DNA from: Patescibacteria group bacterium
GTDB lineage: Bacteria > Patescibacteriota > WWE3 > UBA101185 > UBA10185
Direction: 5' to 3'
Assembly: GCA_026004595.1 (NCBI GenBank)
Contig: BPJL01000001.1
Coordinates: forward strand, 90,486 to 154,485
DNA: 64,000 nucleotides
Shown: positions 1,786-44,917 of the stretch, in pieces
How positions within the stretch are numbered: position 1 is the first letter of the stretch
How the letters are laid out: the number at the start of each line of letters is the position of its first letter
Translations under genes and position numbers: made by a program
Notes under the pieces: model-generated
What the model was told of the DNA's origin: nothing
Seen by the model: only the letters and a program-made list of their open reading frames with translations
Databases searched by the model: none

Positions 1786-1920
1786 TAACTATGATAAGCA
1801 GACAACTTTTATTAGAGCTAAAAACAATTCTTGAAGAAGATTACAGATTAAACTTTACATTTGAGGAGATAACGGAAATTGGCACAGCTCTTTTAAGGTT
1901 CGTCGAAACTCTATTAAAAG

Positions 1921-2322: not shown

Positions 2323-2349
2323 AGTTAAATAAACTTAATTTGAATAACT

Positions 2350-3200: not shown

Positions 3201-3215
3201 CAGTTTATTTATGTT

Positions 3216-4850: not shown

Positions 4851-4883
4851 CAGCCGGACGCTCTACCATTGAGCTACAGGGGA
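4809..4883 (-). tRNA. tRNA-Asn (anticodon GTT)
   Basis: Reverse complement folds as a 75-nt cloverleaf TCCCCTG TA GCTC AATGGTA GAGC G TCCGG CTGTTAA CCGGC ... GGTGGTTCGAGTCCACC CGGGGGA G CCA. Very similar to E. coli tRNA-Asn. CCA is encoded. Confidence 0.85.
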
Positions 4884-11451: not shown

Positions 11452-11527
11452 GGGTGATTAGCTCAATTGGCAGAGCTCTCGTCTTATACACGAGCGGTTC
11501 CTGGTTCGATCCCAGGATCACCCACCA
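11452..11527 (+). tRNA. tRNA-Ile (anticodon TAT, reads AUA)
   Basis: 76-nt cloverleaf GGGTGAT TA GCTC AATTGGCA GAGC T CTCGT CTTATAC ACGAG CGGTT CCTGG TTCGATC CCAGG ATCACCC A CCA. The anticodon loop gives UAU. Confidence 0.8.
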
Positions 11528-14276: not shown

Positions 14277-14350
14277 CGCGGGGTGGAGGAATGGCACCTC
14301 ACCGGGCTCATAATCCGGGGGTCCTGGTTCGAGTCCAGGCCCCGCAACCA
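14277..14350 (+). tRNA. Initiator tRNA-fMet (anticodon CAT)
   Basis: CGCGGGGTGGAGG...CCGGGCTCATAATCCGG...CCCCGCAACCA. Closely parallels E. coli tRNA-fMet, including the C1-A72 mismatch and G-rich anticodon stem. CCA is encoded. Confidence 0.85.
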
Positions 14351-14401
14351 ATATTTATTCCCAGAAACATTGATCATGTGTATAATCCTGATAGGAATTT
14401 T

Positions 14402-14478
14402 GCCAACATAGCTCAGTAGGTTAGAGCGGTCGTTTCATAAGCGACAGGTCCCTGGTTCGATCCCAGGTGTTGGCACCA
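14402..14478 (+). tRNA. tRNA-Met (anticodon CAT, elongator; tRNA-Ile2/LAU not excluded)
   Basis: 77-nt cloverleaf GCCAACA TA GCTC AGTAGGTTA GAGC G GTCGT TTCATAA GCGAC AGGTC CCTGG TTCGATC CCAGG TGTTGGC A CCA. Confidence 0.75.
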
Positions 14479-18226: not shown

Positions 18227-19767
18227 TAGCTTCATTTGTAGAGAAACACGATAAGACTGTTCACAGGATACTGGAAATGACTCTCGGGCTCACGACCTGG
18301 ACTCTCCTGACTTCGCCCATTTGGCTGGGGTTGCTTTACCCTCCGGCAATAGTGTACATGCTCACTTTTTTTACAGTATACTGGAGCTATCTTGCCGCAA
18401 AACATACATTAGGATTGTTTCTCGGATATAGAAAGTACAAAGAGGAAATTGAAGTTGATTGGGCTGCAGAGTTCAACAAAATAGATTTTTCATCTCTTCC
18501 CGATCCGGCTACCCTGCCTGAAAGCAAGGATAAATTAAAACACTTAATTCTCATACCAGCTGTAAACGAACCGGCTGATGTATTAAGGGCAAGCATAGAC
18601 AGCATTTTTAACCAAACATATGATACCAAGAAGATCACCCTTGTCTATACGCTTGAAGAAAAATATGCCGTGGAAACGGAAAGAAATATTAGGGAAATTA
18701 TTGGCGATCGTGAAAGCAGATTAGAAAGATTTCTAGTATATGTTCATCCACGAGGTATAGAAGGGGAGGCAGTTGGAGCGGCGGCTGCGAACCGAACGTG
18801 GGGTGCAAGAAACGCTGTGGGAAGGCTCAGATCGGAAGGGGAGAACATAAGAAATTACGTTTTTAGTACCATAGATGCGGATCACGTACTTCACCCGCAG
18901 TATATTGCCAGATTATCTCATCTTTATTTAACAACTCCTAGGAGGGACAATCACTACTATTCAACAGCAGTACATTTGTTCAATAATAATCTCTGGAGAG
19001 TTCCGGTTATGATGCGAATTGAGGCCAATGCAGTTACCATGGGGAGTTTGTCTGACTGGAGCGCCACAAAGGGAGTATTGAAAGACAGCTTTTCATCTTA
19101 TTCGGCGTCTCTCCAAACTTTAATAGATGCTGATTATTGGGATGTTACTTTAGGGGTAGATGACACTATTTTTTACTGGAGGGCTTTTTTCAAAAGAGAT
19201 GGAGATTTTGATGGAGTACCTCATTATATACCTTATTCGGCAGACGCTGTGGAAGGAAAGAATTTTATTGATTCTCATGTTAGGTTATACAAACAGCTTC
19301 TTAGGTGGGGGTGGGGAGCAATAGATTTTCCTTTGTCGGTAAAAGAGTTTCTGAAAAATAAAAAGATTGCTCTAAGTAAGAAAATAGGATGGGTGCTGAA
19401 GCATTTTGAAAGGAGAGTGATACTTGTAAATATAGTTTTTCTGATAACTTTTGGTTTTGGATTGGTTACTCTAGTGAACCCGTATGTTAAGCAATCTAAC
19501 TTTGCCTACAGCCTTCCCGATATTATGAGTCTTATACTTACTATTACACTTGTGTTTCTTGTGCCAGCCACTTTTTTCAGAATGGGGCTTGTTGCTCCCA
19601 TGCCAGAAAATTGGCCGGTGTGGAGGAGAGTTCTAGTACTTTTGGAAGGTCCTCTGATAATGCTTAACCTTTTGACGTACTCATTTTTTCCATGGGTTCA
19701 GGCGCAGACCAAAATGCTCCTTGGACAAAAAATGAAGGATCTTTACCACACCCCTAAGGTGAGGTAG
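18223..19767 (+). CDS. Processive family-2 glycosyltransferase (cellulose/chitin-synthase-like membrane GT2)
   Basis: N- and C-terminal TM helices flank a GT-A domain with D,D motifs (STIDADH) and the processive QxxRW motif (QLLRWGWG). Confidence 0.6.
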   Translation: MIASFVEKHDKTVHRILEMTLGLTTWTLLTSPIWLGLLYPPAIVYMLTFFTVYWSYLAAKHTLGLFLGYRKYKEEIEVDWAAEFNKIDFSSLPDPATLPESKDKLKHLILIPAVNEPADVLRASIDSIFNQTYDTKKITLVYTLEEKYAVETERNIREIIGDRESRLERFLVYVHPRGIEGEAVGAAAANRTWGARNAVGRLRSEGENIRNYVFSTIDADHVLHPQYIARLSHLYLTTPRRDNHYYSTAVHLFNNNLWRVPVMMRIEANAVTMGSLSDWSATKGVLKDSFSSYSASLQTLIDADYWDVTLGVDDTIFYWRAFFKRDGDFDGVPHYIPYSADAVEGKNFIDSHVRLYKQLLRWGWGAIDFPLSVKEFLKNKKIALSKKIGWVLKHFERRVILVNIVFLITFGFGLVTLVNPYVKQSNFAYSLPDIMSLILTITLVFLVPATFFRMGLVAPMPENWPVWRRVLVLLEGPLIMLNLLTYSFFPWVQAQTKMLLGQKMKDLYHTPKVR

Positions 19768-19778
19768 AAGTATATATA

Positions 19779-21284
19779 GTGAATATTACGGCTAGAGCAA
19801 AAAAATATTGGGCTGTTTTCATGGCAGGAAGAAGGGGCGGAATAGCCCCATTTTTCTTTCTTAATTTTCTGTTGGCTGTTTTGCAGGCGCTCTATATTTT
19901 ATCCAGATTTAAGTATATAAACCAGGAAGTTCCTTTTTGGTTTGGTAAACATTGGGGGGAGTACCAACTGGCACCGAAACAATATTTGTATTACATTCCA
20001 ATGCTTAGTGGAGGACTGACTTTTATCGCCTCACTCTTAAGGTATATAAATCGTCTATATTTGAGGTATTTTGATGAGCTCTTGTCCTACTTTGTTACTT
20101 CAATTAACGTTTTTTTATTCTATTCAATTTTTTTTATCATACAGTCTGCGTCCCTTCCATTCCCCCCGCTTGTTCCCGCGAAATTTCTGTTGCTGGCACC
20201 ACCTTTTATCCTATCTTTTTTAATTGTGTATTTTGCTCTGCCCTATGTTATAGATTTGGCACACAAGAAGCGTCTGGTTACTGACCCCAAGGTTCATACA
20301 CACCCTGCAATGATATTGTCGGGGCCGAGCGCAAGGGGAGGCGGTCTTGTTTACGCTTTAGTATTTTTGCTGGTCAGCGTAGTTTTTGTTGGGATAAACA
20401 GGCAGTTTTTCGGTATATATCTATCGGTTTTCATGTTAGCAATATTGGGGATAATGGATGACTATCAGAACACCCACCCATTGTCGGAGTTCAGAGTCCT
20501 GGAGAACCCATTCTTAAGGCTCACCCTTCTATTTTTGTGCGTTTTGCCTCTTTTAGTTTCTGGGTCTGTCGTAAGTACAATAAGCATCCCCTTTAATGGT
20601 TTTATGCAACTGGACACCATGAAGATTTCGCTAGGTTCCATTACGGTTCCGGTTATTTCCGCCGTTCTAACAGTAATATGGGTTGTGTGGTTAATGAATG
20701 CTCTTTCGTGGTCAAATGGGATTGATGGGCAATATGCAGGCGTGATAGGAATTTCCTCTATTTTTGTAGCAATTCTTGCGTTGAGGTTTTCGAACATTCA
20801 ACCTATTCATAAGAGTATAGCGGTGATGGCTGCAATAAGTGCTGGGGCGGCTTTCGGTTTTACAAAATACACCTGGCACCCCTCTAAAATAATGTGGGGT
20901 TTTGGAGCAATGTCGGCCGGCTTGGTAATCGCGGCTTTATCAATAATTGTTCAGACCAAGGTTTTAGTTTCAGTTCTTTTTATCCTAATCCCCTTTTTGG
21001 ATGCTCTAGTTACTTTCTTCAGGAGACTTTTGCAGGGAAAGAACCCGTTAACTGGGGATCGCGGTCACCTTCACCACTTGCTACTAGACAGGGGATGGAG
21101 TGTGCAGAAAATTGCCCGTTTTTATTGGTTCACGGCCTTTATTTTTGGATTGATAGGATTGCTGTCGCCTGAGAAACACCTCGTAAAATTGTCCCTTACA
21201 ATTATAGGAGCGGTTGGTTTTTTTATCGCCCTGTTGAACTTAAAATCACTAGGACAGAAAAAAATGACACTAAGATCTGAGTAA
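19779..21284 (+). CDS. Polyprenyl-phosphate N-acetylhexosamine-1-phosphate transferase (MraY/WecA, GT4 family) with N-terminal membrane extension
   Basis: MraY/WecA signature NALSWSNGIDGQ. C-terminal GDRGHLHHLLLDRG. About 11 TM helices. An extra ~150-aa N-terminal hydrophobic region. Confidence 0.6.
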   Translation: MNITARAKKYWAVFMAGRRGGIAPFFFLNFLLAVLQALYILSRFKYINQEVPFWFGKHWGEYQLAPKQYLYYIPMLSGGLTFIASLLRYINRLYLRYFDELLSYFVTSINVFLFYSIFFIIQSASLPFPPLVPAKFLLLAPPFILSFLIVYFALPYVIDLAHKKRLVTDPKVHTHPAMILSGPSARGGGLVYALVFLLVSVVFVGINRQFFGIYLSVFMLAILGIMDDYQNTHPLSEFRVLENPFLRLTLLFLCVLPLLVSGSVVSTISIPFNGFMQLDTMKISLGSITVPVISAVLTVIWVVWLMNALSWSNGIDGQYAGVIGISSIFVAILALRFSNIQPIHKSIAVMAAISAGAAFGFTKYTWHPSKIMWGFGAMSAGLVIAALSIIVQTKVLVSVLFILIPFLDALVTFFRRLLQGKNPLTGDRGHLHHLLLDRGWSVQKIARFYWFTAFIFGLIGLLSPEKHLVKLSLTIIGAVGFFIALLNLKSLGQKKMTLRSE

Positions 21285-32248: not shown

Positions 32249-33118
32249 TCAAGATATTTTTAGTTTTTTGAGAATGTTTTTGTAGGATTCGAGGATTCTT
32301 CGAGAATTATCGTTTTTGTTGAAATGTATTATGTGCTTACCCAACACTTCGGTTGTGATTTTCTTTCTCATATAATGCAGCTGAGCTTCTCTTGCCATAT
32401 TTTCGAGCAGAGAAAATAAAAGGCCGGACGACGACTCGCTCCTTCCCTCAGTGTAATTGATGCGAAAATTTGGGTAGTAGTCCATAACCCAATTGTTCTG
32501 GCTTATAAACTTAAAATATGTATCGCCTTTGTTAACTATTGGTTGGATCATTACTATGTCCGAGGCAATGAAAATATTTCTTTTTTCCTTTTCCCATTGC
32601 ATTTTAGATTCATCTAGGAAAAGATTAGTGCAAAAGCTGCCTGGCTGGCCGTCGAATTGTGGGTGTTTATTTAATATTTTCAAAATTAGGGCGACAAACC
32701 CTCGGGTTATCCATAAGCGGTTCCTTTTGGTTATGAGCATCAAGTCAATGTCAGAATTTTTTTCTGGATTGTAGGCGGCTAATGAACCCGTTATCGCAAT
32801 CATTCTAACCCAAGGAATGCCGCCCAGAAATTTTAAGAGCGGGGTGTTTTCTTCTATTATCTTTTTGGAGAGTTTCTGTTTCGACAGCCAATTAGTGTAT
32901 TTTTCACCCAGTATTTCATACTTTCCATATATTTTTCTTGCCCACCTGTCTTTTATTAGTTTATTGAGAGCAGTTTTTAGTTTTTTACTGTTTGATGGAG
33001 AATCAGCTATCAAGTAAGTGCCTATTTGAAAGAAGCTCATGGGGTAATGAAACAAGGCTCTGTAAGCAAGGGTTCGTTTTATTGCGGATTCTACTCCTTT
33101 TCCGGTTCTTTTCGGCAT
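32249..33118 (-). CDS. Pol-beta-superfamily nucleotidyltransferase-fold protein of unknown specificity
   Basis: Motif GSLAAYNPEKNSDIDLMLI (GS...DxD) is typical of minimal nucleotidyltransferases such as KNTase/GlnE-type. About 170 aa of unknown C-terminal domain. Confidence 0.4.
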   Translation of the reverse strand: MPKRTGKGVESAIKRTLAYRALFHYPMSFFQIGTYLIADSPSNSKKLKTALNKLIKDRWARKIYGKYEILGEKYTNWLSKQKLSKKIIEENTPLLKFLGGIPWVRMIAITGSLAAYNPEKNSDIDLMLITKRNRLWITRGFVALILKILNKHPQFDGQPGSFCTNLFLDESKMQWEKEKRNIFIASDIVMIQPIVNKGDTYFKFISQNNWVMDYYPNFRINYTEGRSESSSGLLFSLLENMAREAQLHYMRKKITTEVLGKHIIHFNKNDNSRRILESYKNILKKLKIS

Positions 33119-33122
33119 TCTA

Positions 33123-33536
33123 TTACCCTTGCTTGTACATGTACTTATCTAATGCTTTGTTTACCAGAAGATCGGCATCGGTATTTTTCTCTCTCGGCAC
33201 ATGCTTAAATTCTATATGTTCAAATTTTTCAGCAAGTTCGGCCACTTTTTGAAAGAGGGGTTTTAGGCCGGCATTTTTTACCTTATATTCTCTGTTAAGC
33301 TGTTTCACTATCAATTCGCTGTCAAGATAACATATCAAATTGGCAATTTTTCTTTCTATTGCCGCTTTCAAGCCTTCTAGAACAGCTGTGTACTCTGCTT
33401 GATTATTTGTTGTTTCACCAATGTACACGCCCATCTCATATATTTTTTCCTTTCTCTCGTTTCTAATTACAATTCCTATTCCTGCAGGTCCGGGGTTTCC
33501 TCTGGCGCCCCCGTCTGTGTTTAATTGGTAAGTCAT
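33123..33536 (-). CDS. rnhA: Ribonuclease HI
   Basis: RNase H type 1 catalytic residues in context (TDGGARGNPGPAGIG...NNQAEYTAVLEGL...YLDSELIV...TDADLLVN). Confidence 0.8.
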   Translation of the reverse strand: MTYQLNTDGGARGNPGPAGIGIVIRNERKEKIYEMGVYIGETTNNQAEYTAVLEGLKAAIERKIANLICYLDSELIVKQLNREYKVKNAGLKPLFQKVAELAEKFEHIEFKHVPREKNTDADLLVNKALDKYMYKQG

Positions 33537-34138
33537 TTGATGTATTCCTTAAAAGAAAATTTTAATAATGAGAAAGCTAATCCTATTAACAACCCGCTGA
33601 ATAAGTAATTTGGGAGGGGTCTTTGGTCTCTTTTGACGACGGGTTCTTCAGAAATCGGCAGCACCTTGATGTTTTCGTCAGAGGCATTTGTTATTTTCTC
33701 CCCAGCTTCCAAGAAACGCTTGGAAAGAGAATCATAGATTTTGAGAGTTTTCTCGTTGTTGTAATCCGCTACAGCTAGTGAAACCACCTGCGGGCCTTTT
33801 TTATACACTTTGTAGGTTCTTGAGAGCTTTCTTAGGTTGTTGTCCGTAACGGCAAGTTTTAAGTCACCCAACACTGCGCTTTTTATGTTTTCACTTTCAA
33901 GCAAGGCAATTGCCGTATTTGTGTAGGATTGGGCGGTTTGCTGGGCGTAATACCCCTCATAAGTAAAAAACTCGTTGCTTGGTTTATCAGCAACTCTTCC
34001 TATAAAGTAATACCCCTCGGCTACGTATTTTCCCGGTATAAAAGTGGCTATAATGCCCAAAATGCCTCCGGAAACCGTCAAGATCAGTAGTTCTTTTTTT
34101 CGTGTGTTTAGTTTTTTTAAGATTTCCCTTAATTCCAT
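33533..34138 (-). CDS. Wzz/chain-length-determinant-like (PCP) bitopic membrane protein (tentative)
   Basis: 201 aa with N- and C-terminal TM helices around a soluble central domain, as in short polysaccharide co-polymerases. Confidence 0.3.
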   Translation of the reverse strand: MELREILKKLNTRKKELLILTVSGGILGIIATFIPGKYVAEGYYFIGRVADKPSNEFFTYEGYYAQQTAQSYTNTAIALLESENIKSAVLGDLKLAVTDNNLRKLSRTYKVYKKGPQVVSLAVADYNNEKTLKIYDSLSKRFLEAGEKITNASDENIKVLPISEEPVVKRDQRPLPNYLFSGLLIGLAFSLLKFSFKEYIK

Positions 34139-34241: not shown

Positions 34242-37200
34242 ATGGTCAAAAATCAGTCCATTAAAAAAAATTCGCTAGTTCCGACAATTTTGGTCAGCGG
34301 AGGCGCGGGATTTGTCGGTTCTCATCTTGTTGAGGCACTGCTTTCCAACGGTGCGAGAGTTCTGGTATTGGATAATTTTAACACTGGAAAAGAAATTCAC
34401 GTAAAGCATCTTCTCGCTAATCCGAACTTTGCTCTCTTTAATGTGGATATAAATGAAGGACTTCCGCCTGAGATAGAGAGTGTTGATTATGTTTTTCACA
34501 TGGCCGGGTTAGAAGATTATATGTACAGCGGCGAAGATCCAACTCTTGACACTTTGCTGACAAACTCGCTCGGTACTAAGAATCTTCTCGATCTAGTTAA
34601 ACGCTCGGAGGCGAAGTTTGTTCTTATATCTACAATAGATGTGTATCAGGGGAGAATGTCGCAGGACGAGCTGGGAAAATATTTTGGTCTCTCAAAGCCT
34701 GAAGAAAACAAGTTCAGCTTGATTGAAGCGAAAAGGTTTGCCGAGGCAGTAGTTTGGGAATACTACAAAAAATATGATTTGGATGTTCGGATTGTTCGTC
34801 TTCCAGAAGTATACGGACCAAGAATGAATCTTGACTCAAGTGGGGCACTAGGAATTTTTATAAAAGCATTGCTTGATGGAAGGAATATTGAGGTTAGCAA
34901 TGACGGTGTTGAAAAAGAGTACTATCTTTATGTATCGGATGCGGTGAGCGGAATTTTAAGATCAATGTTCAACCAAGGGACAAAGGGAGGTATTTATTCT
35001 CTGGTACCTGATTCTCCGATAACCCAACTGGAGATTGCCTATCTTCTAAAGAGCTTGGCTGATGGAAACATTGCTATTACCTTCAAGAGCTCGGGGTTCT
35101 CTCTTCCTTTCAGAGGTCCCGCACCTGATACATATAATCTTAAGGATTTGGGTTGGAAGCCACGTATTGGTTTGAAGGCCGGGATAATAGACACTCTTAA
35201 GTCTTTTGGCTACACGGTAAATAGGAATACATTCAAGCCCGCGAGATATGTTGAAGAAAAACTTGTGGCAAAAGGTGTGCAGACAACAACGGTTAAACCG
35301 TCTGAAAATACACCTCCTGCAACTGCGCCGGTAACCTCCATTTATCCTGCGGACATGGCCACTCTTTACGCAAGGAATTATGTAAATAAGGAGAGGAAAC
35401 CACGAAAGAAAATAGATTTGGGATTTCTTTTCAGGCATAAAGGTGTAAAAGAGAGCAAGGAAAAAAGGGCAAAGACTGTCTTCTCCAATTCTAAGTTTTA
35501 TATTGCAACCGCAATTTTTATTTCCGCCATTCTTGTGTTTCTCATAAACCCACTTTTTAATTTATATTCCAATGTTAGTTCAGGTGTTACCGCTTTAAAT
35601 AACATAGAAAAGGCAGGGTATAGTTTAAATTTGGAAGAGCTTTCCAAAAACTCGGCGCTTGCCTCTCGTAAATTTGAAACAGCAACCAAAAATCTCTCAG
35701 ATTTAAAATGGCTTTTTTCGCTTTCAGGTAAATCTCCGGAGTACATAAGCTATTTTAGAATGTTAAACTCTCTAAAGAATTTTTCCGAATCGGTTGGCTA
35801 CTTAGCAAAATCGGCAGCTCCCCTTGAGGGAATGTGGGAAATACTTAGACCGGATACTCAGGATGTTCTTACCAAAGATATAATTGACAACGCAAAATTT
35901 GAAATAGGACAGGCTCAAAAACTTCTTTACCTAGCTGAGGCAGATTTTGGCGGGGTTGATAAAGTGCACATTCCCGAAAAATACAGAAAACATGCTGACA
36001 ACTATGAAAAATATATTTTAATTCTTCAACAAAATTTGAGTCTTACAACAAAAATCATAAGTGATGTAGCCAATGTTTTAGGTGTTGAGAAGGAAACGAC
36101 CTATATAATATGGTTTCAAAACTCAAACGAACTGCGTCCGACCGGAGGCTTTATCGGTTCTTATGGCTTGTTAACCTTTGATAAAGGAAAAATAAAAGAT
36201 CTAAAGATAGATGATATTTATAATCCTGACGGACAGATAAAATTAAGAGATATAAAAGTAGATGCCCCCGAAGTCATTTCCAGATATTTGCAGGAGGATA
36301 GATTGTTTTTAAGAAATTCCAATTGGGATCCAGATTTTCCAACAGCGGCGGGAGTCTTTGGCAATCTTTTTTACAGGATAGACGGCCAGGGTGTAGATGG
36401 TTACATAGCCGTGGACCTAAAGTTTGTTGAAGGGATACTACGTGCTACAGGACCGGTGTATCTTGCGGCATACAACGAGGAAATAAATACTGATAATCTT
36501 TACGAGAGAACGCAGTTCCACAGCGATTTTAATTACACCGAAGGATCCAACCAGAAAAAGTCATTTTTGACAGTTTTAGGTAGCAAACTTTTGGATAAGG
36601 TATTTTCTCTTCCAAAAGATAAAATACCAGATCTTCTTAACGAAATACAAAAGTCTTTGGACGAAAAGCACCTTCTTGTTTATCTTTCAAACGGAGCAAT
36701 AAACGAAGTTTTGAAGGAGAAAAATTGGAATGGACAGGTGGTTCCTGTTGAGGGGGATTATTTATATGTTGTTAACTCCAATCTTGGAGGAACAAAAGCT
36801 AATTATTTTGTTAAGAATTATATTGATTACGAAATAAGTTCCATGACAAGAGACGGGGTGTTGAGAGCTGTGCTTAAGCTGACCTATACCCATACCGGAG
36901 ATTCCATGGCTTGGCCTGGGGGGCCCTACAAAGATCATATAAGGGTGTTAGTCCAAAAAGGCGCCAAACTCACTGGAGCGGAATACATAGGGACCGATGG
37001 TTTATCAGAGAATGTGATGGAGAAAATATCTTTATCGCAATCAAATGGCTACGACGTGATGTCCTATGATTTGGTCCTGAACCCAAAGGAGACAGCCACT
37101 CTCATTATAAAGTACGATCTTGCCGAGAAGCTGAATATAACCAAGGATCGCGCTTCCTATTCATTATATGTTCAGAAACAGCCGGGGACAGACGCAGATC

Positions 37201-37337
37201 CTTTCAACTTTACCTTTAACGCTCCATTTGGCATGCAAATAACTAAGGCGAGCAAAGGACTGGACATATTGGATAATAAAATAGTGTCTTTATCCGAACT
37301 TAGAAATGATAAGAATTACTTTATAGAGTTGCGCTGA
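34242..37337 (+). CDS. Fusion protein: NAD-dependent sugar epimerase/dehydratase (SDR) + TM segment + DUF4012 domain
   Basis: N-terminal Rossmann motif VSGGAGFVGSHLVEAL and extended-SDR features (~330 aa). Then a TM helix (IATAIFISAILVFLINPLF). A ~650-aa C-terminal domain carries the DUF4012-type motif ELRPTGGFIGSYGLLTF. Confidence 0.6.
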   Translation: MVKNQSIKKNSLVPTILVSGGAGFVGSHLVEALLSNGARVLVLDNFNTGKEIHVKHLLANPNFALFNVDINEGLPPEIESVDYVFHMAGLEDYMYSGEDPTLDTLLTNSLGTKNLLDLVKRSEAKFVLISTIDVYQGRMSQDELGKYFGLSKPEENKFSLIEAKRFAEAVVWEYYKKYDLDVRIVRLPEVYGPRMNLDSSGALGIFIKALLDGRNIEVSNDGVEKEYYLYVSDAVSGILRSMFNQGTKGGIYSLVPDSPITQLEIAYLLKSLADGNIAITFKSSGFSLPFRGPAPDTYNLKDLGWKPRIGLKAGIIDTLKSFGYTVNRNTFKPARYVEEKLVAKGVQTTTVKPSENTPPATAPVTSIYPADMATLYARNYVNKERKPRKKIDLGFLFRHKGVKESKEKRAKTVFSNSKFYIATAIFISAILVFLINPLFNLYSNVSSGVTALNNIEKAGYSLNLEELSKNSALASRKFETATKNLSDLKWLFSLSGKSPEYISYFRMLNSLKNFSESVGYLAKSAAPLEGMWEILRPDTQDVLTKDIIDNAKFEIGQAQKLLYLAEADFGGVDKVHIPEKYRKHADNYEKYILILQQNLSLTTKIISDVANVLGVEKETTYIIWFQNSNELRPTGGFIGSYGLLTFDKGKIKDLKIDDIYNPDGQIKLRDIKVDAPEVISRYLQEDRLFLRNSNWDPDFPTAAGVFGNLFYRIDGQGVDGYIAVDLKFVEGILRATGPVYLAAYNEEINTDNLYERTQFHSDFNYTEGSNQKKSFLTVLGSKLLDKVFSLPKDKIPDLLNEIQKSLDEKHLLVYLSNGAINEVLKEKNWNGQVVPVEGDYLYVVNSNLGGTKANYFVKNYIDYEISSMTRDGVLRAVLKLTYTHTGDSMAWPGGPYKDHIRVLVQKGAKLTGAEYIGTDGLSENVMEKISLSQSNGYDVMSYDLVLNPKETATLIIKYDLAEKLNITKDRASYSLYVQKQPGTDADPFNFTFNAPFGMQITKASKGLDILDNKIVSLSELRNDKNYFIELR

Positions 37338-37351
37338 TATAATAATAACAA

Positions 37352-39049
37352 ATGCCTTTAGCAGACATGCCCCAATCTCATAAACAGCACGCTGTCCCAC
37401 AGAATGTTATGAGTGTGGAATTTAAGCTTATCGGTGATCTCACAATGAGACAATTCGCGTACGTTTTCATTGCCGGGGTTCTTGCCTACCTTTCGTATGT
37501 ATTTTTTGTGGGTATTTTCAGATGGCCTTTGGTTTTTCTTATTGCATTTGGCGGAATCGGTTTTGCTTTTATTCCTGTACAGGAAAGGGGAATGGACGAG
37601 TGGATTATTAATTTTTTTAGGGCGATGTATTCTCCGACCCAGCGTATTTGGAGAAAGCAGCCTACGATACCAACCGCCTTTAGTTATGATAATCTCGCTG
37701 TTGTAAGACAAGAGCTTATAACACTTGCGCCTACCTCCAGTCGTAGAAAGCTTGAGGAATATCTTAAATATCAGGCCGGTGGTGAGGAAGTAGACCCGTT
37801 GGATATACCAGAAAGGGAGTATGCTCAAAAAGTTAGGGATGCTTTCCCTGGTGCCAGGAAGAAAAGCGAGGCAACTTCTACCGCGTTTTCAAGAAGTTCT
37901 TTCGGTCCCGCAATCGGTGTGCAGCCTACAGCCGTAACAACAATAGAAGGAGAAGCCATTCAGGAAGAAGAAGTTGTTACGCCGGTTTCTGTTGAAGTTA
38001 GTGCAGGTGAAGAGGTCGGTGTTGCAGCCAAGATTCCACAAGCCGAGGAACCAACTGTTCAAAAAGCGGAAGTTTCGGTTCAAACAGGTATTCAAAGAAG
38101 TAAGGACGCCGGTCTTTTTCATTTATTCAAGGCGAAAGAAGCTCAGAAGGCTAGGGAAGAGGCGCGAGCCGCCAAATTGGAAGATGGTGCCCCCCGTCTT
38201 TCTGCCCCATCTTCTAAGGCGTCGTCTATACCTCTTAAGCCGCTAACACCCGATATGCACTCTGGGCGAAGGTTTGTAAATCTACTGCCTTCAGAAGGCG
38301 AACTTATCCTTCCTATTAGAGGAGAGAGGGTGCTTAGAACTTCAGAAGAAATTTCTGTTGAAGAGACAATAAATGAAAAGGCAAGAAAGCTGCAGGAGTT
38401 GCTTAGGAGGATAAAGGAGGAAGAGGGGATTAAATCTGCCAAAGTTGTTGTAGCCCCAGTTTCGGTTGCCCAAAAGGAAGAACAGCGAGCTCAGGAGGTT
38501 CACGATGAGGCCAAAGATGTTGTTGATAAGCTTAAGATTCAGAGCGAAGAAATTAACGAAGAGATTAGAAGGCTTAAGAGAAATATTGAGTCAACCCACA
38601 CGCTCGGTTCCGCGTCCGAAACTCAAACAAGACTGTTGCAGGAGCTTGAGACCAAGAAACAGGCTGTTGAGGAAAGCTACCGTGTGCTTAGCCAAGGGAT
38701 CCAGAGTTTGAAATCAGAACCGAGAGAGAAAGTGGGAGCTGCTTCGGATATGATAAGAGACACATACCCAACAGAAAAAATTAGTCCTAATACTCTCCAT
38801 GGCGTGGTTAAAGACGCCAATGGAAAAGTACTGACTAATGTATTGTTAATAGTAAAGAATGAAGAAGATGAGCCGGTGAGAGCGCTAAAGACCGACAGCT
38901 TAGGAAGATTTGAGCTTCTGTCCGCACTGAACAATGGGAAATATACCATTGAAGTTAAGCCTTCAGATGAGCAAAAATTGTCGTTTGAAAAAATTTCTGT
39001 AGAATTAAAAGGTGATGTGGTTCCTCCTTTTGTAATATTGGGCAAATAG
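37352..39049 (+). CDS. PrgI-family (VirB3-like) T4SS membrane protein with long coiled-coil/low-complexity extension and C-terminal CarboxypepD_reg-like beta-sandwich domain
   Basis: N-terminus EFKLIGDLTMRQFAYVFIAGVLAYLSYVFFVG plus a second TM matches the PrgI family. Residues ~150-480 are Ala/Glu/Lys-rich with heptad-like stretches. The C-terminus GVVKDANGKVLTNVLLIVKNEEDEPVRALKTDSLGRFELLSALNNGKYTIEV is an Ig-like regulatory fold. Confidence 0.55.
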   Translation: MPLADMPQSHKQHAVPQNVMSVEFKLIGDLTMRQFAYVFIAGVLAYLSYVFFVGIFRWPLVFLIAFGGIGFAFIPVQERGMDEWIINFFRAMYSPTQRIWRKQPTIPTAFSYDNLAVVRQELITLAPTSSRRKLEEYLKYQAGGEEVDPLDIPEREYAQKVRDAFPGARKKSEATSTAFSRSSFGPAIGVQPTAVTTIEGEAIQEEEVVTPVSVEVSAGEEVGVAAKIPQAEEPTVQKAEVSVQTGIQRSKDAGLFHLFKAKEAQKAREEARAAKLEDGAPRLSAPSSKASSIPLKPLTPDMHSGRRFVNLLPSEGELILPIRGERVLRTSEEISVEETINEKARKLQELLRRIKEEEGIKSAKVVVAPVSVAQKEEQRAQEVHDEAKDVVDKLKIQSEEINEEIRRLKRNIESTHTLGSASETQTRLLQELETKKQAVEESYRVLSQGIQSLKSEPREKVGAASDMIRDTYPTEKISPNTLHGVVKDANGKVLTNVLLIVKNEEDEPVRALKTDSLGRFELLSALNNGKYTIEVKPSDEQKLSFEKISVELKGDVVPPFVILGK

Positions 39050-39050
39050 T

Positions 39051-39752
39051 ATGACAAACCAAAACATACCGGCAACTCAAGATCATCTCGATATTATGGA
39101 TATAAGAGATAACTTTGTTATTCTCAAGAATGGAGGTGTATGTGCGGTTCTACAGACTACGGCGGTCAATTTTGACCTTCTTTCGGAGATGGAGCAGGAT
39201 GCAATCATTGCGGCATTTTCTATGTTATTGAATTCAATAACATTTCCTATACAAGTTGTTATCAGATCAAGAAGGTTGGATATTTCTAAATATTTGGAAA
39301 AAGTATATAGAGTAGAAAGCAAACTGGCTGATCCTTTATTGAAACATCAGGCCTCCGCGTATAGAAAATTTGTTCAGGATGTGATAAAGAAGAACGATGT
39401 TCTGGACAAGAGATTTTATGTTGTTATTCCTACAAGTGTTGCTGAAAAAGCGCAACCGGGTTCAGGGCCGTTCGACTGGCTTATGAGACTGACGGGACAG
39501 CACAACAAGAGGGTTTCGTTTAATATTGAAAAGGCTCTCAACGACGGAAAGATAGAATTATCACCTAAAATTGATCACGTAATAAAAGAATTCAATAGAC
39601 TGGGAATCAAGACAAAGCAACTTACTACACAAGACTTAGTGGAGCTTTATTTTGATATTTATAATCCGACCTCTATCCATGGTCAAAGGATTAGGACGGG
39701 GGTTGATGATTATACGACGGCGATAGTAAACCCCGCAATCATTGAGGAGTAA
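39051..39752 (+). CDS. T4SS VirB4-family protein, N-terminal domain encoded as a separate polypeptide (Tn916 Orf16-like N-region)
   Basis: DIMDIRDNFVILKNGGVCAVLQTTAVNFDLLSEMEQDAIIAAFSMLLNS matches the first conserved block of Orf16/TcpF-type VirB4. In Orf16 this block precedes the block found at the start of the next ORF. The gene ends at TAA one nt before the next ATG, which has its own SD (GAGGAG). Confidence 0.5.
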   Translation: MTNQNIPATQDHLDIMDIRDNFVILKNGGVCAVLQTTAVNFDLLSEMEQDAIIAAFSMLLNSITFPIQVVIRSRRLDISKYLEKVYRVESKLADPLLKHQASAYRKFVQDVIKKNDVLDKRFYVVIPTSVAEKAQPGSGPFDWLMRLTGQHNKRVSFNIEKALNDGKIELSPKIDHVIKEFNRLGIKTKQLTTQDLVELYFDIYNPTSIHGQRIRTGVDDYTTAIVNPAIIEE

Positions 39753-39753
39753 T

Positions 39754-41862
39754 ATGGCGTTAAATCTTTTTACAATGTTTTCAAATCAACCGAAACCTAA
39801 GAAGCAGGATAAGCAACCGAAGCCCGGAGAAAAGACACCGGCGGAGGTGCTGGCGGAAGGAATGCTGAATGTCAGGGACATTATCGCACCCTCCGCTATA
39901 GAAATTGACTTTAACCATATAAGAATCGGAAATGTGTATTTCAGGACGCTGTTCGTTTCAGGATATCCAAGATTTGTCGGCGCAAACTGGTTGTCTCCGA
40001 TTATCAATTTTGAACATACACTGGATGTTTCTATGTTTTATTATCCTGTGAAATCTAAGGTAATTCTTGATGATTTAAGGAGAAAAATCACCGAGCTTGA
40101 AGCGACAACCATGACCAATATTGAGAAGGGAAAGATTGTTGATCCTGTTGTAGCCGCGGCGTTGGAAGATGCCAAAGCTCTTCAAGAACAACTGGTTAAG
40201 GGAGTTGAAAAATATTTTCAATTCTCTTTTTACATAACCATATCCGCCGAAACTGAGGAAGAGCTTGAGTCCATTTCTTCCAAGCTGGAAAGTACGCTTG
40301 GCGCCCTGCTTCTTATATCCAAGGTAGCTTCCCTTCAGATGGAAGAGGCTTTTCAGTCCTCAATACCTACGGGTATGGATAAACTGTTGGTTACGAGAAA
40401 TATGGACACGACAAGTTTGGCCACAACATTTCCGTTTACCTCGTCTGATCTGACTATGGAGGAGGGAATAATGTATGGGATCAACAGGCACAATGGTTCA
40501 TTGGTCATATTCGATAGGTTCTCTCTAGAAAATGCAAACTCGGTTGTTTTCGCAAAATCAGGCTCAGGAAAATCATATTTTGTTAAGCTTGAGGCACTCA
40601 GGCTTTTGGTATTTGGCGCAGAGGTGATGATTATAGATCCGGAGGAGGAATACAAAACTTTGTGCGAGGCTGTAGGGGGTAATTATATCGATTTTTCTGC
40701 CAACTCACCGCATAAGATAAATCCTTTTGATCTTTCGGGCGTTGCAGTGGAGGGAGAAAACGAGCTAGGACAGAAGCTCATTGGCCTTATAACACTGTTG
40801 AAGCTTATGCTTGGTGGGTTGACAGCAGCCGAAGAAGCCATTCTCGATCGCGCCCTCATTGAAACGTACAGAATTAAAGGGATTACCACCGACCCTGATA
40901 CCCAATCCGGCATAGAGCCTCCTGTCATGGAGGATTTATACAAGGTGTTGTTGGGGGCTTCTGAACCTGAAGCAAAGGGAATGGCCGAAAGACTTGAGAG
41001 ATTTATCAAGGGCTCTATGACGGGAATCTTTGATTCCCAATCCAATATTAACTTGGACAGCAAGATGACGGTTTTCTCGACGAAACACTTAGAGGAGGCT
41101 CTAAGGCCTATCGCCTTTTATTTAATACTTGATTTTGTTTGGACTAGAATAAGAAAGGATTTGAGAAAGAGGATATTAATTGTTGAAGAGGCTTGGTATT
41201 TGATGCAAAACGAAGATAGTGCAAGATTTATTTACGGAATTGCGAAACGAGCTAGAAAATATTATCTAGGTCTTACAACGATATCGCAGGATGTTGACGA
41301 TTTCTTGTCGTCTGAATACGGAAAGGCGATTGTTACGAACTCATCAATACAAATATTGTTGAAACAACACCCGGCGGGCATAGATAAAGTTGCCGAAACC
41401 TTCTATCTCTCCGAAGGAGAAAAGAGGCTGTTGTTGGCGGCTGCTGTAGGAGAAGGGCTGTTTTTTGCAGGTTCGAATCATGTGGCGATAAAGATAATGG
41501 CGTCAGAGGCTGAACATAAGCTTATAACCACGAACCCCGAAGAGTTGCTTAGGTTGCGTGAGCAGGGATTGATAAAAACGCCGGGGAAAGACAAACCCAA
41601 ACCACCTGAAATTCCATCTACACAAAAACCATCTCCTTTGGTAGAAACCCCGTCTGTTTATAGTACACCCACAATTACGGATACAACCGCATCACTGAAA
41701 GAGCCGGAGAAAAAAGAGGACGAGAAGGGCTTTTCCGAAGTTCAATCGAAAGAACCCACAAGTGAAGATATACTCAGATCTGTCGAGTCAATGTCAAAAG
41801 GGCCGGGAACCATAGATCTTAACCAAGAAAGTTCACTCCAGCAACCCGCTCCCGCAGAATAA
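39754..41862 (+). CDS. T4SS ATPase VirB4/TraC/TrbE family (CagE_TrbE_VirB)
   Basis: N-region IAPSAIEIDFNHIRIGNVYFRTLFVSGYPRFVGANWLSPII. Walker A FAKSGSGKS. Walker B ILIVEEAW. C-terminal Pro/Thr-rich tail. The ATG at 39754 is preferred over the TTG at 39742. Confidence 0.8.
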   Translation: MALNLFTMFSNQPKPKKQDKQPKPGEKTPAEVLAEGMLNVRDIIAPSAIEIDFNHIRIGNVYFRTLFVSGYPRFVGANWLSPIINFEHTLDVSMFYYPVKSKVILDDLRRKITELEATTMTNIEKGKIVDPVVAAALEDAKALQEQLVKGVEKYFQFSFYITISAETEEELESISSKLESTLGALLLISKVASLQMEEAFQSSIPTGMDKLLVTRNMDTTSLATTFPFTSSDLTMEEGIMYGINRHNGSLVIFDRFSLENANSVVFAKSGSGKSYFVKLEALRLLVFGAEVMIIDPEEEYKTLCEAVGGNYIDFSANSPHKINPFDLSGVAVEGENELGQKLIGLITLLKLMLGGLTAAEEAILDRALIETYRIKGITTDPDTQSGIEPPVMEDLYKVLLGASEPEAKGMAERLERFIKGSMTGIFDSQSNINLDSKMTVFSTKHLEEALRPIAFYLILDFVWTRIRKDLRKRILIVEEAWYLMQNEDSARFIYGIAKRARKYYLGLTTISQDVDDFLSSEYGKAIVTNSSIQILLKQHPAGIDKVAETFYLSEGEKRLLLAAAVGEGLFFAGSNHVAIKIMASEAEHKLITTNPEELLRLREQGLIKTPGKDKPKPPEIPSTQKPSPLVETPSVYSTPTITDTTASLKEPEKKEDEKGFSEVQSKEPTSEDILRSVESMSKGPGTIDLNQESSLQQPAPAE

Positions 41863-41865
41863 ACT

Positions 41866-42978
41866 TTACAGTTGTATTGGCATGATAATATGCAGAAAGT
41901 CTTCTTCGTTTTCGGTTTTGAATATGCAGGCAGAGTTATTTGAGTTTGCCTCAATTATTATTTTCTCGCCCCGTACGTTGTTTAGAAAATCCAAAAGGTA
42001 TTTTGAGCTAAAAGCTATTTCCAACATATCTCCGTCTACTTCTGCGGAAATTTCGCTTTCATGAGTTCCCACCTCGTTGTTTAGAGAAGAAATTTTTATA
42101 ACACCTTCAGGATCAATTCGTATTTTGAGTGTGTTGCTGGAGCCCTCTTTTACGAATACTGTAGTCAGTCTTACCGCGTCTAGAAAATCGGAAGATGAGA
42201 AAGAGGCTTTTACGGCAGCTGTTGTCGGTATTATTTTTTTATAATCGGGATACTGCCCATCGATTATTCTGGTGGCGATGGTGGTGTCTTCAGCCGAGAA
42301 AAGGGCGAGGTTCTCATCTTCGCTTAAAGTCATTTTTACCGGGCTCTCGGAAGAAGCGAAAATTTTGCTCACCTCCGCAAGAGTTTTTGATGGGATCAGG
42401 GCAGTGAATTTTTTGGCTTTTGAAGACCCCGTCTTAATGGTTCTCTCAGATAGCCTGAAGCCATCAGTTGAGGCGAGTGTCATTTTACCGTTGTCGTAGG
42501 CGATATAGACACCTGTAAATATGGGTCTGCTTTCGTCTAGTGACGATGCGAAGCATACCAAAGATACTGCGGTGGCGAATATTTTTGGGTCGAGTTCGAG
42601 TGAGGTTCCCTTTACAGGCATAGTTGGAAGTTCGGGGAAATCCTTGGCGTCCGTACCGTTTATCTTTGACTTTGTTTTTTCGGATTTGATATTGAGAATA
42701 TCGTTGTCTAAATTCACTTCGATGGTTGAGGGTGGAAGGTTTGCAACTAATTCTTTCAATATCTTGGCCGGGATGGTTATGGTTCCTTCCTTTTCTACGG
42801 AGGCGTTTACGTATGTAGTAATGGCAGTTTCCAGATTGGTAGCCGCCAGTTTTATCCTCCCATTTTCGGTTGATAAAAGCACATTTGAGAGTATAGGGAG
42901 AGATCCTTTGGCTGGTACAGCTCTGGTAGTAATTTGTAGCCCCCTATTTAAGTTTTCCTGTAGGCAAGAAAATTTCAT
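41866..42978 (-). CDS. dnaN: DNA polymerase III beta sliding clamp
   Basis: Three-domain beta-clamp pattern. N-terminus MKFSCLQENLNRGLQITTRAV...LPILSNVLL. Confidence 0.9.
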   Translation of the reverse strand: MKFSCLQENLNRGLQITTRAVPAKGSLPILSNVLLSTENGRIKLAATNLETAITTYVNASVEKEGTITIPAKILKELVANLPPSTIEVNLDNDILNIKSEKTKSKINGTDAKDFPELPTMPVKGTSLELDPKIFATAVSLVCFASSLDESRPIFTGVYIAYDNGKMTLASTDGFRLSERTIKTGSSKAKKFTALIPSKTLAEVSKIFASSESPVKMTLSEDENLALFSAEDTTIATRIIDGQYPDYKKIIPTTAAVKASFSSSDFLDAVRLTTVFVKEGSSNTLKIRIDPEGVIKISSLNNEVGTHESEISAEVDGDMLEIAFSSKYLLDFLNNVRGEKIIIEANSNNSACIFKTENEEDFLHIIMPIQL

Positions 42979-43430
42979 TGTCTTTTGAGTTTTAAAGTAA
43001 CCCGCCTATCCCGTCCTTCTCCAATACTTTCTGAGATTATATCGTCATATTCTGAAACGAACATATGTATTTGTCTTCTTTCCCAAGGATCCATCGGAGG
43101 CAGTTCAACATCTTTTTGAAAAAAACGAACTCTATCTATGTAGCTCCTGGCCATGTTTTGAATCTTTTCAGTTCTTTGGTCTCTGTAGCCGTTTATGTCG
43201 ATGATTACTGTGACTTGTTCTCCAGTCTGTCTTAAAACCGTCAAATGCAAAATGCTTTGAAGCGCGTCAAGTGATTGTCCTCTGTGCCCTATCAAAAAAT
43301 TTAGGTTGTTGCCTTTTATAACAACTTCGTAAACCTTATCTCCCTTGTCGTTGATTTCGTAAACCGGCTCTATTTTCATAAAGCCGAAGATGTTTTCTAA
43401 TGTGTTTTGAATTATATCCTGAGGTTTCAT
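42975..43430 (-). CDS. jag: Jag/KhpB RNA-binding protein (KH + R3H domains)
   Basis: KH-like segment and R3H motif (IGHRGQSLDALQSIL). Located downstream of yidC as in the conserved rnpA-yidC-jag cluster. Confidence 0.75.
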   Translation of the reverse strand: MKPQDIIQNTLENIFGFMKIEPVYEINDKGDKVYEVVIKGNNLNFLIGHRGQSLDALQSILHLTVLRQTGEQVTVIIDINGYRDQRTEKIQNMARSYIDRVRFFQKDVELPPMDPWERRQIHMFVSEYDDIISESIGEGRDRRVTLKLKRQ

Positions 43431-43456
43431 TTTTGCTGCTCTCTTTCGTAGAAATT

Positions 43457-44242
43457 CTATCTTTTCGTTTTCGCAAAACCCAGTTTTTTAACCCAGGGTT
43501 CTAGCCCTCCCCACCCTGTGAAAAAGTACGTTTGCACTATTTGGAACAAGGTTGAAACAGCTATGTATATCATAACACCTGAAGGCAAGGTTAGGCCGAA
43601 AAAGAAAAACATAAGCGGCATGATATACAGATTTTGTTTTTGCATAGACTGTATAATGTCGTCAGTTTTCCCAGGTGTTTTCTTGACTGCTTTTTCACTT
43701 ATCTTGGAGTAGGGCATCATCATTTTTGTAGCCAAAAATTGCAATATTACCGATAGGATCACGATTATTAAATATGGGTCAGGTTTGGCCAGATCTAGGT
43801 ATAAAAATCGGGTATTAATGGTTTCTTGTGAATCAATGCGAAAGTTTTGGAAATATATGCGGTTGTTAAGGTCATCTATTCCGGAACCGTTAGTCATTAT
43901 AATTACCGATTTGTAAACCGCGATCATAAACACAATAGTGATTATTGTTGTAAGGCATCCCGAAGCGGGGTTTATTCCGTGCTTTCTCATAAGTTCCATT
44001 TGCATTTGTGCCATTTTCTTTTGATCATGTTTGTATTTTTCTTTTATTTTCTCTATTTCGGGTTGTACGTCACGCTGTTTTTTGCTCATTTTTATAGAAG
44101 GCAGGGTAACAGGTATCATGACCGCTTTTACTATGATTGTGAATAGAATTATGGCCAGGCCAAGGTTGCCTATAAATGCGTATATGATAACCAAAACGTT
44201 AAATATTGGATTAAGTATTGCCGCATCCCAAATTGCCGTCAT
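43457..44242 (-). CDS. yidC: Membrane protein insertase YidC (short Gram-positive/Oxa1-like form)
   Basis: Five-TM core with conserved YidC segments (QPEIEKIKEKYK...MQMELMRKHGINP). Confidence 0.85.
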   Translation of the reverse strand: MTAIWDAAILNPIFNVLVIIYAFIGNLGLAIILFTIIVKAVMIPVTLPSIKMSKKQRDVQPEIEKIKEKYKHDQKKMAQMQMELMRKHGINPASGCLTTIITIVFMIAVYKSVIIMTNGSGIDDLNNRIYFQNFRIDSQETINTRFLYLDLAKPDPYLIIVILSVILQFLATKMMMPYSKISEKAVKKTPGKTDDIIQSMQKQNLYIMPLMFFFFGLTLPSGVMIYIAVSTLFQIVQTYFFTGWGGLEPWVKKLGFAKTKR

Positions 44243-44248
44243 AAGTAT

Positions 44249-44464
44249 TTATTTTACAGGATCGTAACCTCCTTTTGAAAACGGATTACATCTTACCAGT
44301 CTTTTGATTCCCATGATAGTGCCTTTTACCGCGCCATATTTTTCTACAGCCTCATATGTATAATCTGAACAGCTGGGGGTAAAACGGCAAGTATTTATTC
44401 CGAAGTTACCTGGGCTGAGAAACCTTTTGTAGATTTTTATTAAAATCAGTATAAATCTCCTCAT
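44249..44464 (-). CDS. yidD: Membrane protein insertion efficiency factor YidD
   Basis: Signature [36 protein letters not shown]...RCNPF. Confidence 0.8.
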
Positions 44465-44753
44465 AAGTTTTATCCGATACTGAAAATTTTGGATAAACAG
44501 AAATCCAGCAGTTTTGGGGAATGAAGTTTAGGTTTTTCCTAATAGCTTCCCTAAACAGGCGTTTTACTTTGTTTCTTGCAGTAGCCTTTTTACTAAACTT
44601 GTTTGAAACCACCACACCCGCTTTTGTCGGCCCCATGTAGTTATCTGGTTTCAATACATAAGCAAAGAAAGTATCCCCCTCTATTTTCTGTCCATATTTT
44701 TTGGTTATCTTGTACTCAAAAGGTGTGGAAATACGGTTCTCTTTTTTCAGCAT
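44406..44753 (-). CDS. rnpA: RNase P protein component
   Basis: RnpA RNR-like motif region ([18 protein letters not shown]). Lies between rpmH and yidD. Confidence 0.8.
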
Positions 44754-44758
44754 GAAAT

Positions 44759-44917
44759 TTACTTGCCTTTATATGAAACCGCAAGTCTCTTTCTTCCTCT
44801 GAGCCTTCTTCTTTTTAGCACGTTAATTCCGTTTTTTGTTGCGGTTCTGTTCCTGAAACCGTGTTTGCGGACCCTTTTAACTTTTTTTGGTTGCCATGTT
44901 CTTTTTGTTTTTGGCAT
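44759..44917 (-). CDS. rpmH: 50S ribosomal protein L34
   Basis: [47 protein letters not shown] is canonical L34. Start placed at the internal ATG (44915-44917). Confidence 0.85.

Follow-up and report, generated by a model that had tools for sequence, protein, structure and literature searches.

The three genes at positions 37352-41862 of a 64-kb stretch of DNA from a bacterium of the WWE3 lineage (Patescibacteria; contig BPJL01000001.1) encode, in order, a greatly extended PrgI/VirB3 protein, a TrsD-like protein and a VirB4 ATPase. We conclude that they probably constitute the inner-membrane energising core of a Patescibacteria-type, MPF-FATA-related type IV secretion system (T4SS), and that the tail of the PrgI protein is an elaboration of VirB3 found throughout the lineage and most likely located in the cytoplasm. 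The module itself is already known: a relaxase-less PrgI–TrsD–VirB4 set near dnaN is a re-discovery of a published system. The extended PrgI is an undescribed but lineage-typical variant of VirB3, visible in database domain annotations. The 64-kb stretch is referred to as the window; 37 kb of it precede the module and 22 kb follow it. The three open reading frames (ORFs) lie on its plus strand at 37352-39049, 39051-39752 and 39742-41862.

The PrgI gene (37352..39049, plus strand) encodes 565 residues from the ATG at 37352. Some gene callers start at the ATG at 37367, giving 560 residues; the conserved N-terminal sequence MPxADxPQS favours the longer form. The protein is 100% identical to NCBI KatS3mg101_0133. 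Pfam finds PrgI (PF12666) at residues 15-99, with 40 bits against a gathering cut-off of 27, and CarboxypepD_reg (PF13620) at residues 481-550, where the score of 32.9 bits against a cut-off of 32.3 is marginal. An earlier, sequence-only reading of this DNA had proposed an N-terminal PrgI domain and a C-terminal CarboxypepD_reg-type β-sandwich in one protein, and both are confirmed by these matches together with AlphaFold and Foldseek.

In its size the protein departs from its family. VirB3 proteins are small, at 10–15 kDa, with short cytoplasmic ends (PMC12857230), and the PrgI of pCF10 has 117 residues, whereas this one has 565, about 490 of them after the membrane hairpin. A literature search found no paper linking PrgI with a CarboxypepD_reg domain, in agreement with the suggestion of the sequence-only reading that the extension is not a described T4SS component.

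The N-terminal part is typical of the family in having a transmembrane (TM) hairpin of two helices (residues 35-76, inside the PrgI match; 37454..37579, plus strand), which contains the only two hydrophobic segments on the Kyte-Doolittle scale. AlphaFold places the helices at residues 32-51 and 57-72, with predicted local distance difference test (pLDDT) scores above 90. The loop between them has 1-8 residues, with about one lysine or arginine, across the WWE3 and Microgenomates families. The hairpin is followed by a helical block (residues 77-165; 37580..37846, plus strand) which is the most conserved stretch of the alignment, with a mean column identity of 76%, and whose predicted helices lie between residues 81 and 164. 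It is presumed to be the part that binds VirB4 and TrsD. Residues 115-165 are specific to WWE3 and absent from the Microgenomates forms.

The tail continues with a low-complexity linker rich in Glu, Pro, Val, Ser and Lys (residues 166-295; 37847..38236, plus strand), which varies in length and sequence within the family and has pLDDT values below 50. It ends at a conserved motif, PITPDMHSGRKFxNLLPSxGELILPIRGERVL (residues 296-330; 38237..38341, plus strand), also written for WWE3 as PITPDMHSGRKF…GELILPIRGERVL. The invariant residues are T299, P300, H303, G305, R306, F308, L320, P321 and G324. Of the 74 PrgI ORFs listed for 80 WWE3 loci, 66 were found to contain this motif; it is absent in Microgenomates, and may be a docking peptide. 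Next comes a helical, coiled-coil-like segment (residues 331-454; 38342..38713, plus strand), with AlphaFold helices at 331-357, 375-414 and 420-454; it is shortened or undetectable in some WWE3 members, and a PDB search with the PrgI family profile gave weak coiled-coil matches only. The sequence-only reading had described some 400 residues of heptad-like sequence here. That was overstated: about 125 residues are helical, and the remainder is a disordered linker of about 150 residues plus the 35-residue motif.

The last domain is a transthyretin-like/CarboxypepD_reg β-sandwich (residues 480-565; 38789..39046, plus strand; pLDDT about 90), which is always at the extreme C-terminus in both WWE3 and Microgenomates. 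It is the sole part of PrgI with any structural relatives by Foldseek, these being the transthyretin-like domain of carboxypeptidase D, CnaB2, SdrD and pilin stalk domains, at E values of about 1e-4. The AlphaFold model was built from a 66-sequence alignment and has a mean pLDDT of 66. It is confident for the hairpin, parts of residues 81-164, the three helices of the coiled-coil-like segment and the β-sandwich, while residues 173-324 are disordered.

The other two genes encode one VirB4 in two pieces. The TrsD-like protein (233 residues; 39051..39752, plus strand) is a detached N-terminal piece of VirB4, as judged from NCBIfam matches: it matches VirB4_plasma NF045975 at positions 108-233 (E 2.6e-10), TIGR00929 at positions 19-200, and TrsD NF041427 with E 1.2e-8 and 35 bits, which is below the curated cut-off of 200. 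It had no match in the Pfam copy used, nor in a PDB search with its profile; the public gene call of this ORF carries a match to PF26593 (TraC-like). It adjoins VirB4 in 73 of the 80 WWE3 loci.

The VirB4 ATPase proper has 702 residues (39754..41862, plus strand). The mechanical ORF begins at a TTG at 39742 and has 706 residues, but a GAGGAG ribosome-binding site precedes the ATG at 39754 and public gene calls also have 702 residues, so that the true start is probably the ATG. The protein matches conju_CD1110 of NCBIfam with 383.8 bits (cut-off 325; profile positions 180-735), TIGR00929 at positions 238-724, NF045975 at 276-893, and in Pfam P-loop_TraG (E 3e-30), AAA_10, DUF87 and, weakly, CagE_TrbE_VirB. 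The ATPase part matches the VirB4 C-terminal domain of PDB 4ag5 (E 6e-50). A motif scan located the Walker A sequence AKSGSGKS at 40552..40575 and the Walker B region ILIVEEAW at 41173..41196, both on the plus strand. The first has the form AKSG[AS]GKS in 56 of 64 homologues. The second is an Asp-to-Glu variant of DEAW, and is the norm for the lineage: IVEEAW occurs in 52 of the 64 WWE3 homologues and DEAW in a few. Beyond every VirB4 profile match there is a low-complexity C-terminal tail of about 117 residues, rich in Glu, Pro, Ser, Lys and Thr (41509..41859, plus strand). The VirB4 ORFs among the loci range from 506 to 918 residues, contig-end fragments included.

The two ORFs thus cover successive parts of TIGR00929 and NF045975, with the first 200-270 or so profile positions on the separate 233-residue ORF in place of the usual single chain. 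A BLASTP comparison found no paralogy between them. Since they are dissimilar and tile the VirB4 models, they are not duplicates but together make up one full VirB4, and the two-part VirB4 described by the sequence-only reading is correct.

The extended PrgI is not peculiar to this organism. Full-length relatives of the protein carry the label candidate division WWE3, which also places the source of the window in a group of the small-genome kind that the sequence-only reading had expected, and there are at least 321 full-length homologues (counted as clusters) in WWE3. A genome scan gave 121 species-level loci, nearly all from WWE3 (some of them loosely labelled, for example as Saccharibacteria) and including the complete genome CP006914. 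Eighty WWE3 loci from different species were retrieved for synteny and domain scans. Essentially all WWE3 members have the PrgI block and the terminal β-sandwich, in proteins of 397-890 residues with a variable middle. A profile search with the N-terminal 165 residues gave 2245 representatives at E<=1e-3, of which 210 had E<=1e-30; the best 150 of the 2245 are all of the long, WWE3-like type, and almost all have 400-1000 residues. In three loci the protein is split into two adjacent ORFs, one with the PrgI part and one with the β-sandwich (L057 10001-11708, L065 380-2576, L069 10001-12923); the cause may be frameshifts introduced by faulty assembly, or a real fission of the gene.

Related proteins occur in Microgenomates, in loci that were reached in other classes by way of the VirB6-like protein described below. 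A search from one Microgenomates PrgI gave 700 clusters of about 335 residues with PF12666 and PF13620, which are unnamed or called "PrgI family protein". The alignment shows that they share with the WWE3 proteins, that of the window included, the hairpin, the first helix after the membrane, the terminal β-sandwich and a set of invariant residues. They lack the block at 115-165, the motif at 296-330 and the roughly 125 residues of helices, all of which are WWE3 additions; their linker is rich in Pro, Thr and Ser, and the T4SS loci that encode them also contain pilin arrays, a VirB6-like gene and a T4CP-like (coupling protein-like) gene. The hairpin and β-sandwich thus form a constant core with an expandable middle, in two very large uncultured lineages.

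The membrane topology of the protein determines on which side the tail lies. Two adjacent hydrophobic helices, and no others, are found in 239 of 240 sampled family members. The exception, from WWE3, has a borderline hydrophobic stretch inside the β-sandwich. A single two-helix hairpin puts the tail on the same side as the N-terminus. Lysine and arginine number about 2 before TM1, about 1 in the loop and 5-6 within the 35 residues after TM2. In characterised systems both ends of VirB3 are cytoplasmic and the protein wraps around the cytoplasmic N-domain of VirB4 (R388 complex, PMC9259494), and VirB3–VirB4 fusions exist. On the basis of the single hairpin, the positive charges on its flanks and the topology of VirB3 in known systems, the tail of PrgI is rather likely to be cytoplasmic. 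For the same reasons the proposal of the sequence-only reading, in which a coiled-coil stalk carries an Ig-like head outwards for attachment, is not favoured.

The data directly show the identities of the genes, the split VirB4, the synteny, the architecture across the family and the count of two TM helices. From the relatives of the machine we infer a working arrangement, with its topology, partner contacts and function. By analogy with R388 and pCF10, the TrsD-like and VirB4 polypeptides would form a cytoplasmic ATPase ring, which the PrgI/VirB3 hairpin would anchor to the membrane while contacting a VirB6-like channel protein. The ring would power the extraction of pilins and/or the transfer of substrates through the VirB6-like channel. 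The tail could then be a flexible cytoplasmic tether that reaches along or under the ring and acts as a scaffold, a regulator or a module for docking substrates. The machine as a whole may assemble VirB2-like pili and/or move protein or DNA to a host bacterium; the lack of a relaxase argues against conjugation. DNA uptake, one of the roles suggested by the sequence-only reading, appears less likely than pilus-mediated interaction with a host or delivery of protein, because DNA uptake in Southlakia is attributed to ComEC and not to the T4SS. The conserved extra module on VirB3 gives a testable handle on how this machine differs from conjugation systems.

A number of points weigh against this account. 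Its function is drawn from distant relatives, and the partner of the tail is a predicted one; the proposed docking motif is disordered in the AlphaFold monomer model. The window contains no match to VirB6-like, pilin or T4CP genes in six-frame translation, although the published Patescibacteria-type systems have a VirB6-like gene and VirB2-like pilin genes near virB4, and the contig of the organism itself is not among the matches listed in the metagenome scan for the VirB6-like protein discussed below. Finally, the spacers of the tail, rich in Pro, Thr and Ser in Microgenomates and in Glu, Pro, Val, Ser and Lys in WWE3, resemble those of envelope-spanning proteins, and the β-sandwich has a fold that is widespread among surface proteins, CnaB and SdrD being examples.

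These last two points suggest a different arrangement, in which the hairpin has both its ends outside the cell, the wall is crossed by the linker and coiled coil, and the β-sandwich forms an external head. Such a tail would be either a part of a wall-crossing channel, replacing the VirB8 and VirB10 that these systems lack, or a device for contacting the host. The proline-rich spacers have a parallel in TonB-like spacers, which cross the wall or periplasm; pilin stalk domains share the fold of the head; VirB8 homologues are rarely detectable in Patescibacteria; and the single lysine or arginine in the hairpin loop is conserved. However, PrgI has neither a signal peptide nor a third TM segment, and its positive charges are concentrated on the N- and C-terminal flanks and not in the loop. 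The termini of VirB3 are cytoplasmic, VirB3 is found fused to VirB4 in some cases, and the segment right after TM2, which is the most conserved of all, corresponds to the helix that binds VirB4. An external tail is therefore judged unlikely, at perhaps one chance in a few, but is the chief competitor of the preferred, cytoplasmic arrangement.

A bolder suggestion covers both arrangements and is offered tentatively. The tethered β-sandwich of VirB3 may be a new functional part of the T4SS of WWE3 and Microgenomates, being either (a) a cytoplasmic receptor or gate that replaces a missing or unlinked coupling protein, or (b) the tail of an inverted VirB3, crossing the wall to contact the host in place of VirB8, VirB10 or adhesins. 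If true, either would alter the textbook picture of VirB3 as a small, passive anchor.

The genes missing from the window can be found in relatives. Sister WWE3 lineages have, directly upstream of PrgI, a conserved protein of 425-500 residues with a signal peptide, an ectodomain of about 180 residues and 5-6 TM helices. No VirB6 model matches it, but this organisation is that of VirB6/PrgH, and we call it VirB6-like. It is preceded by an array of pilins of family PF18895. In one sister lineage the order is pilins–large unknown protein–VirB6-like–PrgI–TrsD–VirB4–dnaN…rnpA–dnaA (L061). The VirB6-like proteins form a polytopic family (L028 8559-9953, L061 8549-9931 and relatives) whose ectodomain of about 180 residues contains cysteines and which matches no Pfam model. 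Such a family, invisible to Pfam, may explain why VirB6 was reported as scarce in Microgenomatia in the 2025 survey.

A metagenome scan using an alignment of five VirB6-like sequences retrieved the contiguous form of the locus and also a split form (L101, L105, L112 and L113), in which pilins, giant ORFs and the VirB6-like gene occur but PrgI and VirB4 do not. Locus L113 is on a JGI contig of 130,720 bp, which is the same size as the longest recorded contig carrying a 70%-identical PrgI of the subclade of the window. From this equality we conclude that the subclade very probably keeps its pilin/VirB6 locus elsewhere in the genome, and most likely the organism of the window does likewise. The stripped-down core envisaged by the sequence-only reading is thus unproven, given the pilin array and VirB6-like gene upstream in sister lineages and the separate locus that is very probable in a close relative.

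Other proteins are found beside these genes. Giant proteins of 1067-1294 residues, with no Pfam match, are encoded beside the VirB6-like gene on the opposite strand in T4SS loci of both WWE3 and Microgenomates (L061 5229-8432; L081 9540-12992; L084 9508-12957; L113 1780-5580 and 7064-10948). They are candidate T4SS-associated surface proteins, and have no homologue within the window. A T4CP-like ATPase, with DUF8128, DUF87 and weak TrwB_AAD_bind and TraG-D_C matches, is divergent from PrgI in a Microgenomates-type locus (L084 14857-17052), and two divergent WWE3 loci (L075 466-2628, L077 1441-3675) have a homologue of it some 7 kb upstream of PrgI.

Pilin, VirB6-like and T4CP genes are absent from the window on both sides of the module (37 kb upstream, 22 kb downstream) and, in loci of the DUF4012 clade to which it belongs, from the nearest 10 kb. 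The module could then also be a remnant, or an ATPase repurposed to act by itself, which has lost its pilins and VirB6 and has no secretion channel. This is improbable. The three genes are intact with conserved catalytic motifs, the N-terminal part of PrgI is 58-86% identical across the clade, and synteny is retained in dozens of species; furthermore, the contig that carries the PrgI of one clade member very probably has a pilin and VirB6-like locus as well.

The position of the module is fixed. In the 80 WWE3 loci the conserved order is groEL–(hsp20)–NTase-like (nucleotidyltransferase-like)–RNase H–Wzz-like–Epimerase/DUF4012–PrgI–TrsD–VirB4–dnaN–jag–yidC–rnpA, with gaps that are mostly contig ends, and the 768-kb contig of the source organism has the same order. 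Such conservation of the flanks across WWE3 species excludes a mobile element, and the module has a fixed place in the chromosome, as the sequence-only reading had supposed. The annotated ORFs of the window include neither a relaxase nor a T4CP, and no VirB1 was found in the window. The sequence-only reading had noted that VirB6, VirD4, VirB1-like and relaxase genes were lacking nearby, and this holds for the whole window, including the region beyond dnaN. There is no relaxase, coupling protein or mobile boundary by which a conjugative element might be recognised; the module is flanked by housekeeping genes, whose order is shared by dozens of species. It is thus extremely improbable that the module belongs to an integrated conjugative element, as might be thought from the assignment of its VirB4 to the CD1110 family, typical of Gram-positive conjugative elements, and from a serine integrase beside tRNA-Asn at the left edge of the window, since that integrase is 32 kb away with housekeeping genes between, the window has no composition break, and the flanking order is identical across WWE3.

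The integrase in question is a large serine recombinase (3216-4850; phrog_95 integrase) which abuts tRNA-Asn (4809-4883, minus strand) in the region 212-4883. It is preceded by four ORFs with no Pfam match, one of them a phage-type DNA-binding protein. The left edge of the window is thus probably the end of an integrated element, and no conjugation genes were found in this region.

Four ORFs in the same orientation are tightly packed at 34242-41862, the first of them being the neighbour of PrgI on its 5' side. This gene (34242-37337) encodes a fusion of 1031 residues, with an NAD-dependent sugar epimerase/dehydratase at residues 16-330, a TM helix at about 421-439 and a DUF4012 region. It is separated from the PrgI gene by 14 nt and may be co-transcribed with the module. 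A scan for promoters and terminators gave no signal exceeding that of shuffled sequences. The fusion is kept upstream of PrgI in 46 of the 80 loci, and other genes occupy this place in other subclades. DUF4012 was considered as a partner of the T4SS and rejected, because the upstream gene varies by WWE3 subclade (Epimerase-DUF4012, VirB6-like, tRNA synthetase or a PD40 protein), so that DUF4012 is not a constant companion of the module. Divergent from this operon is a trio of genes (32249-34138, minus strand), syntenic in about 35 WWE3 loci, which encode a nucleotidyltransferase-like protein of 289 residues (weak matches), an RNase H (RVT_3) and a 201-residue Wzz/CpsC-like chain-length determinant with two TM helices.

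On the 3' side, dnaN is convergent with the stop of VirB4, and is followed on the minus strand by jag/KhpB, yidC, yidD, rnpA and rpmH. Both neighbours are as the sequence-only reading had them, a cell-wall-type fusion enzyme upstream and dnaN downstream. The dnaN gene (in the minus-strand region 41866-44917) is the last of the string rpmH–rnpA–yidD–yidC–jag–dnaN. The window does not contain dnaA, which in L061, from a sister lineage, comes directly after rpmH (18398-19780). GC skew keeps one sign throughout the window, and the replication origin is therefore apparently elsewhere. The remainder of the window is housekeeping in character, with groES/EL, alaS, a trpS/tyrS-type synthetase, ftsH, suf genes, miaA/miaB, ftsEX and glycosyltransferases. 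It also has a tRNA-Ile with anticodon TAT (11452-11527; ARAGORN), overlapping the 3' end of a GT87-like ORF (11484-12794, minus strand), and two tRNA-Met(CAT) genes at 14277-14478.

The module may be compared with three known kinds of system. The VirB3–VirB4 complex of R388 (TrwM–TrwK; PMC9259494), in which a two-TM VirB3 wraps the N-domain of VirB4 and touches VirB6, serves as the template for mechanism and topology. R388 differs in belonging to a diderm; its VirB4 is a single chain and its VirB3 has about 100 residues, and its relation to the module is drawn from family membership.

The Gram-positive MPF-FATA systems of pCF10 (PrgH–PrgI–PrgJ) and pGO1 (TrsC–TrsD–TrsE) resemble the window in matching the PrgI family and in having the N-terminus of VirB4 split off in the manner of TrsD. 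Their gene order, VirB6–VirB3–(TrsD)–VirB4, is that of the sister WWE3 lineages. Unlike the module, they are plasmid-borne, with a relaxase, a coupling protein and an adhesin, and the 117-residue PrgI has no tail.

The third is the Patescibacteria T4SS, which a 2025 review regards as a distinct type of T4SS. Quiñonero-Coronel et al. (2025; PMC12102498) described a VirB4 clade specific to Patescibacteria and related to MPF-FATA, with TrsD and PrgI/VirB3 adjacent, lacking a relaxase in most genomes, and located on the chromosome near dnaN, dnaA, rnpA and rpmH. The main text does not name WWE3, and neither this paper nor that on Southlakia cited below mentions a β-sandwich tail on VirB3; the consulted portion of the supplement makes no mention of WWE3, DUF4012 or PF13620, and RAAC2_WWE3_1 is absent from that portion of Table S3. 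The homologous cluster of Southlakia epibionticum, SEML1_0006-0019, proved in transposon sequencing (Tn-seq) to be essential for growth as an epibiont (Wang et al., 2023; PMC10633639). No T4SS other than that of Patescibacteria is known to be essential for the growth of its owner. In comparison with these systems, the window has no adjacent pilin, VirB6 or VirB1 gene, and its VirB3 has a tail of about 465 residues ending in a β-sandwich. In other respects the agreement is close. The WWE3 relatives have the same VirB2-like pilin arrays and VirB6-like protein, and the module itself has the same core of PrgI/VirB3, an adjacent TrsD and a VirB4 of the MPF-FATA kind, without a relaxase, in the same chromosomal setting beside dnaN, rnpA and rpmH.

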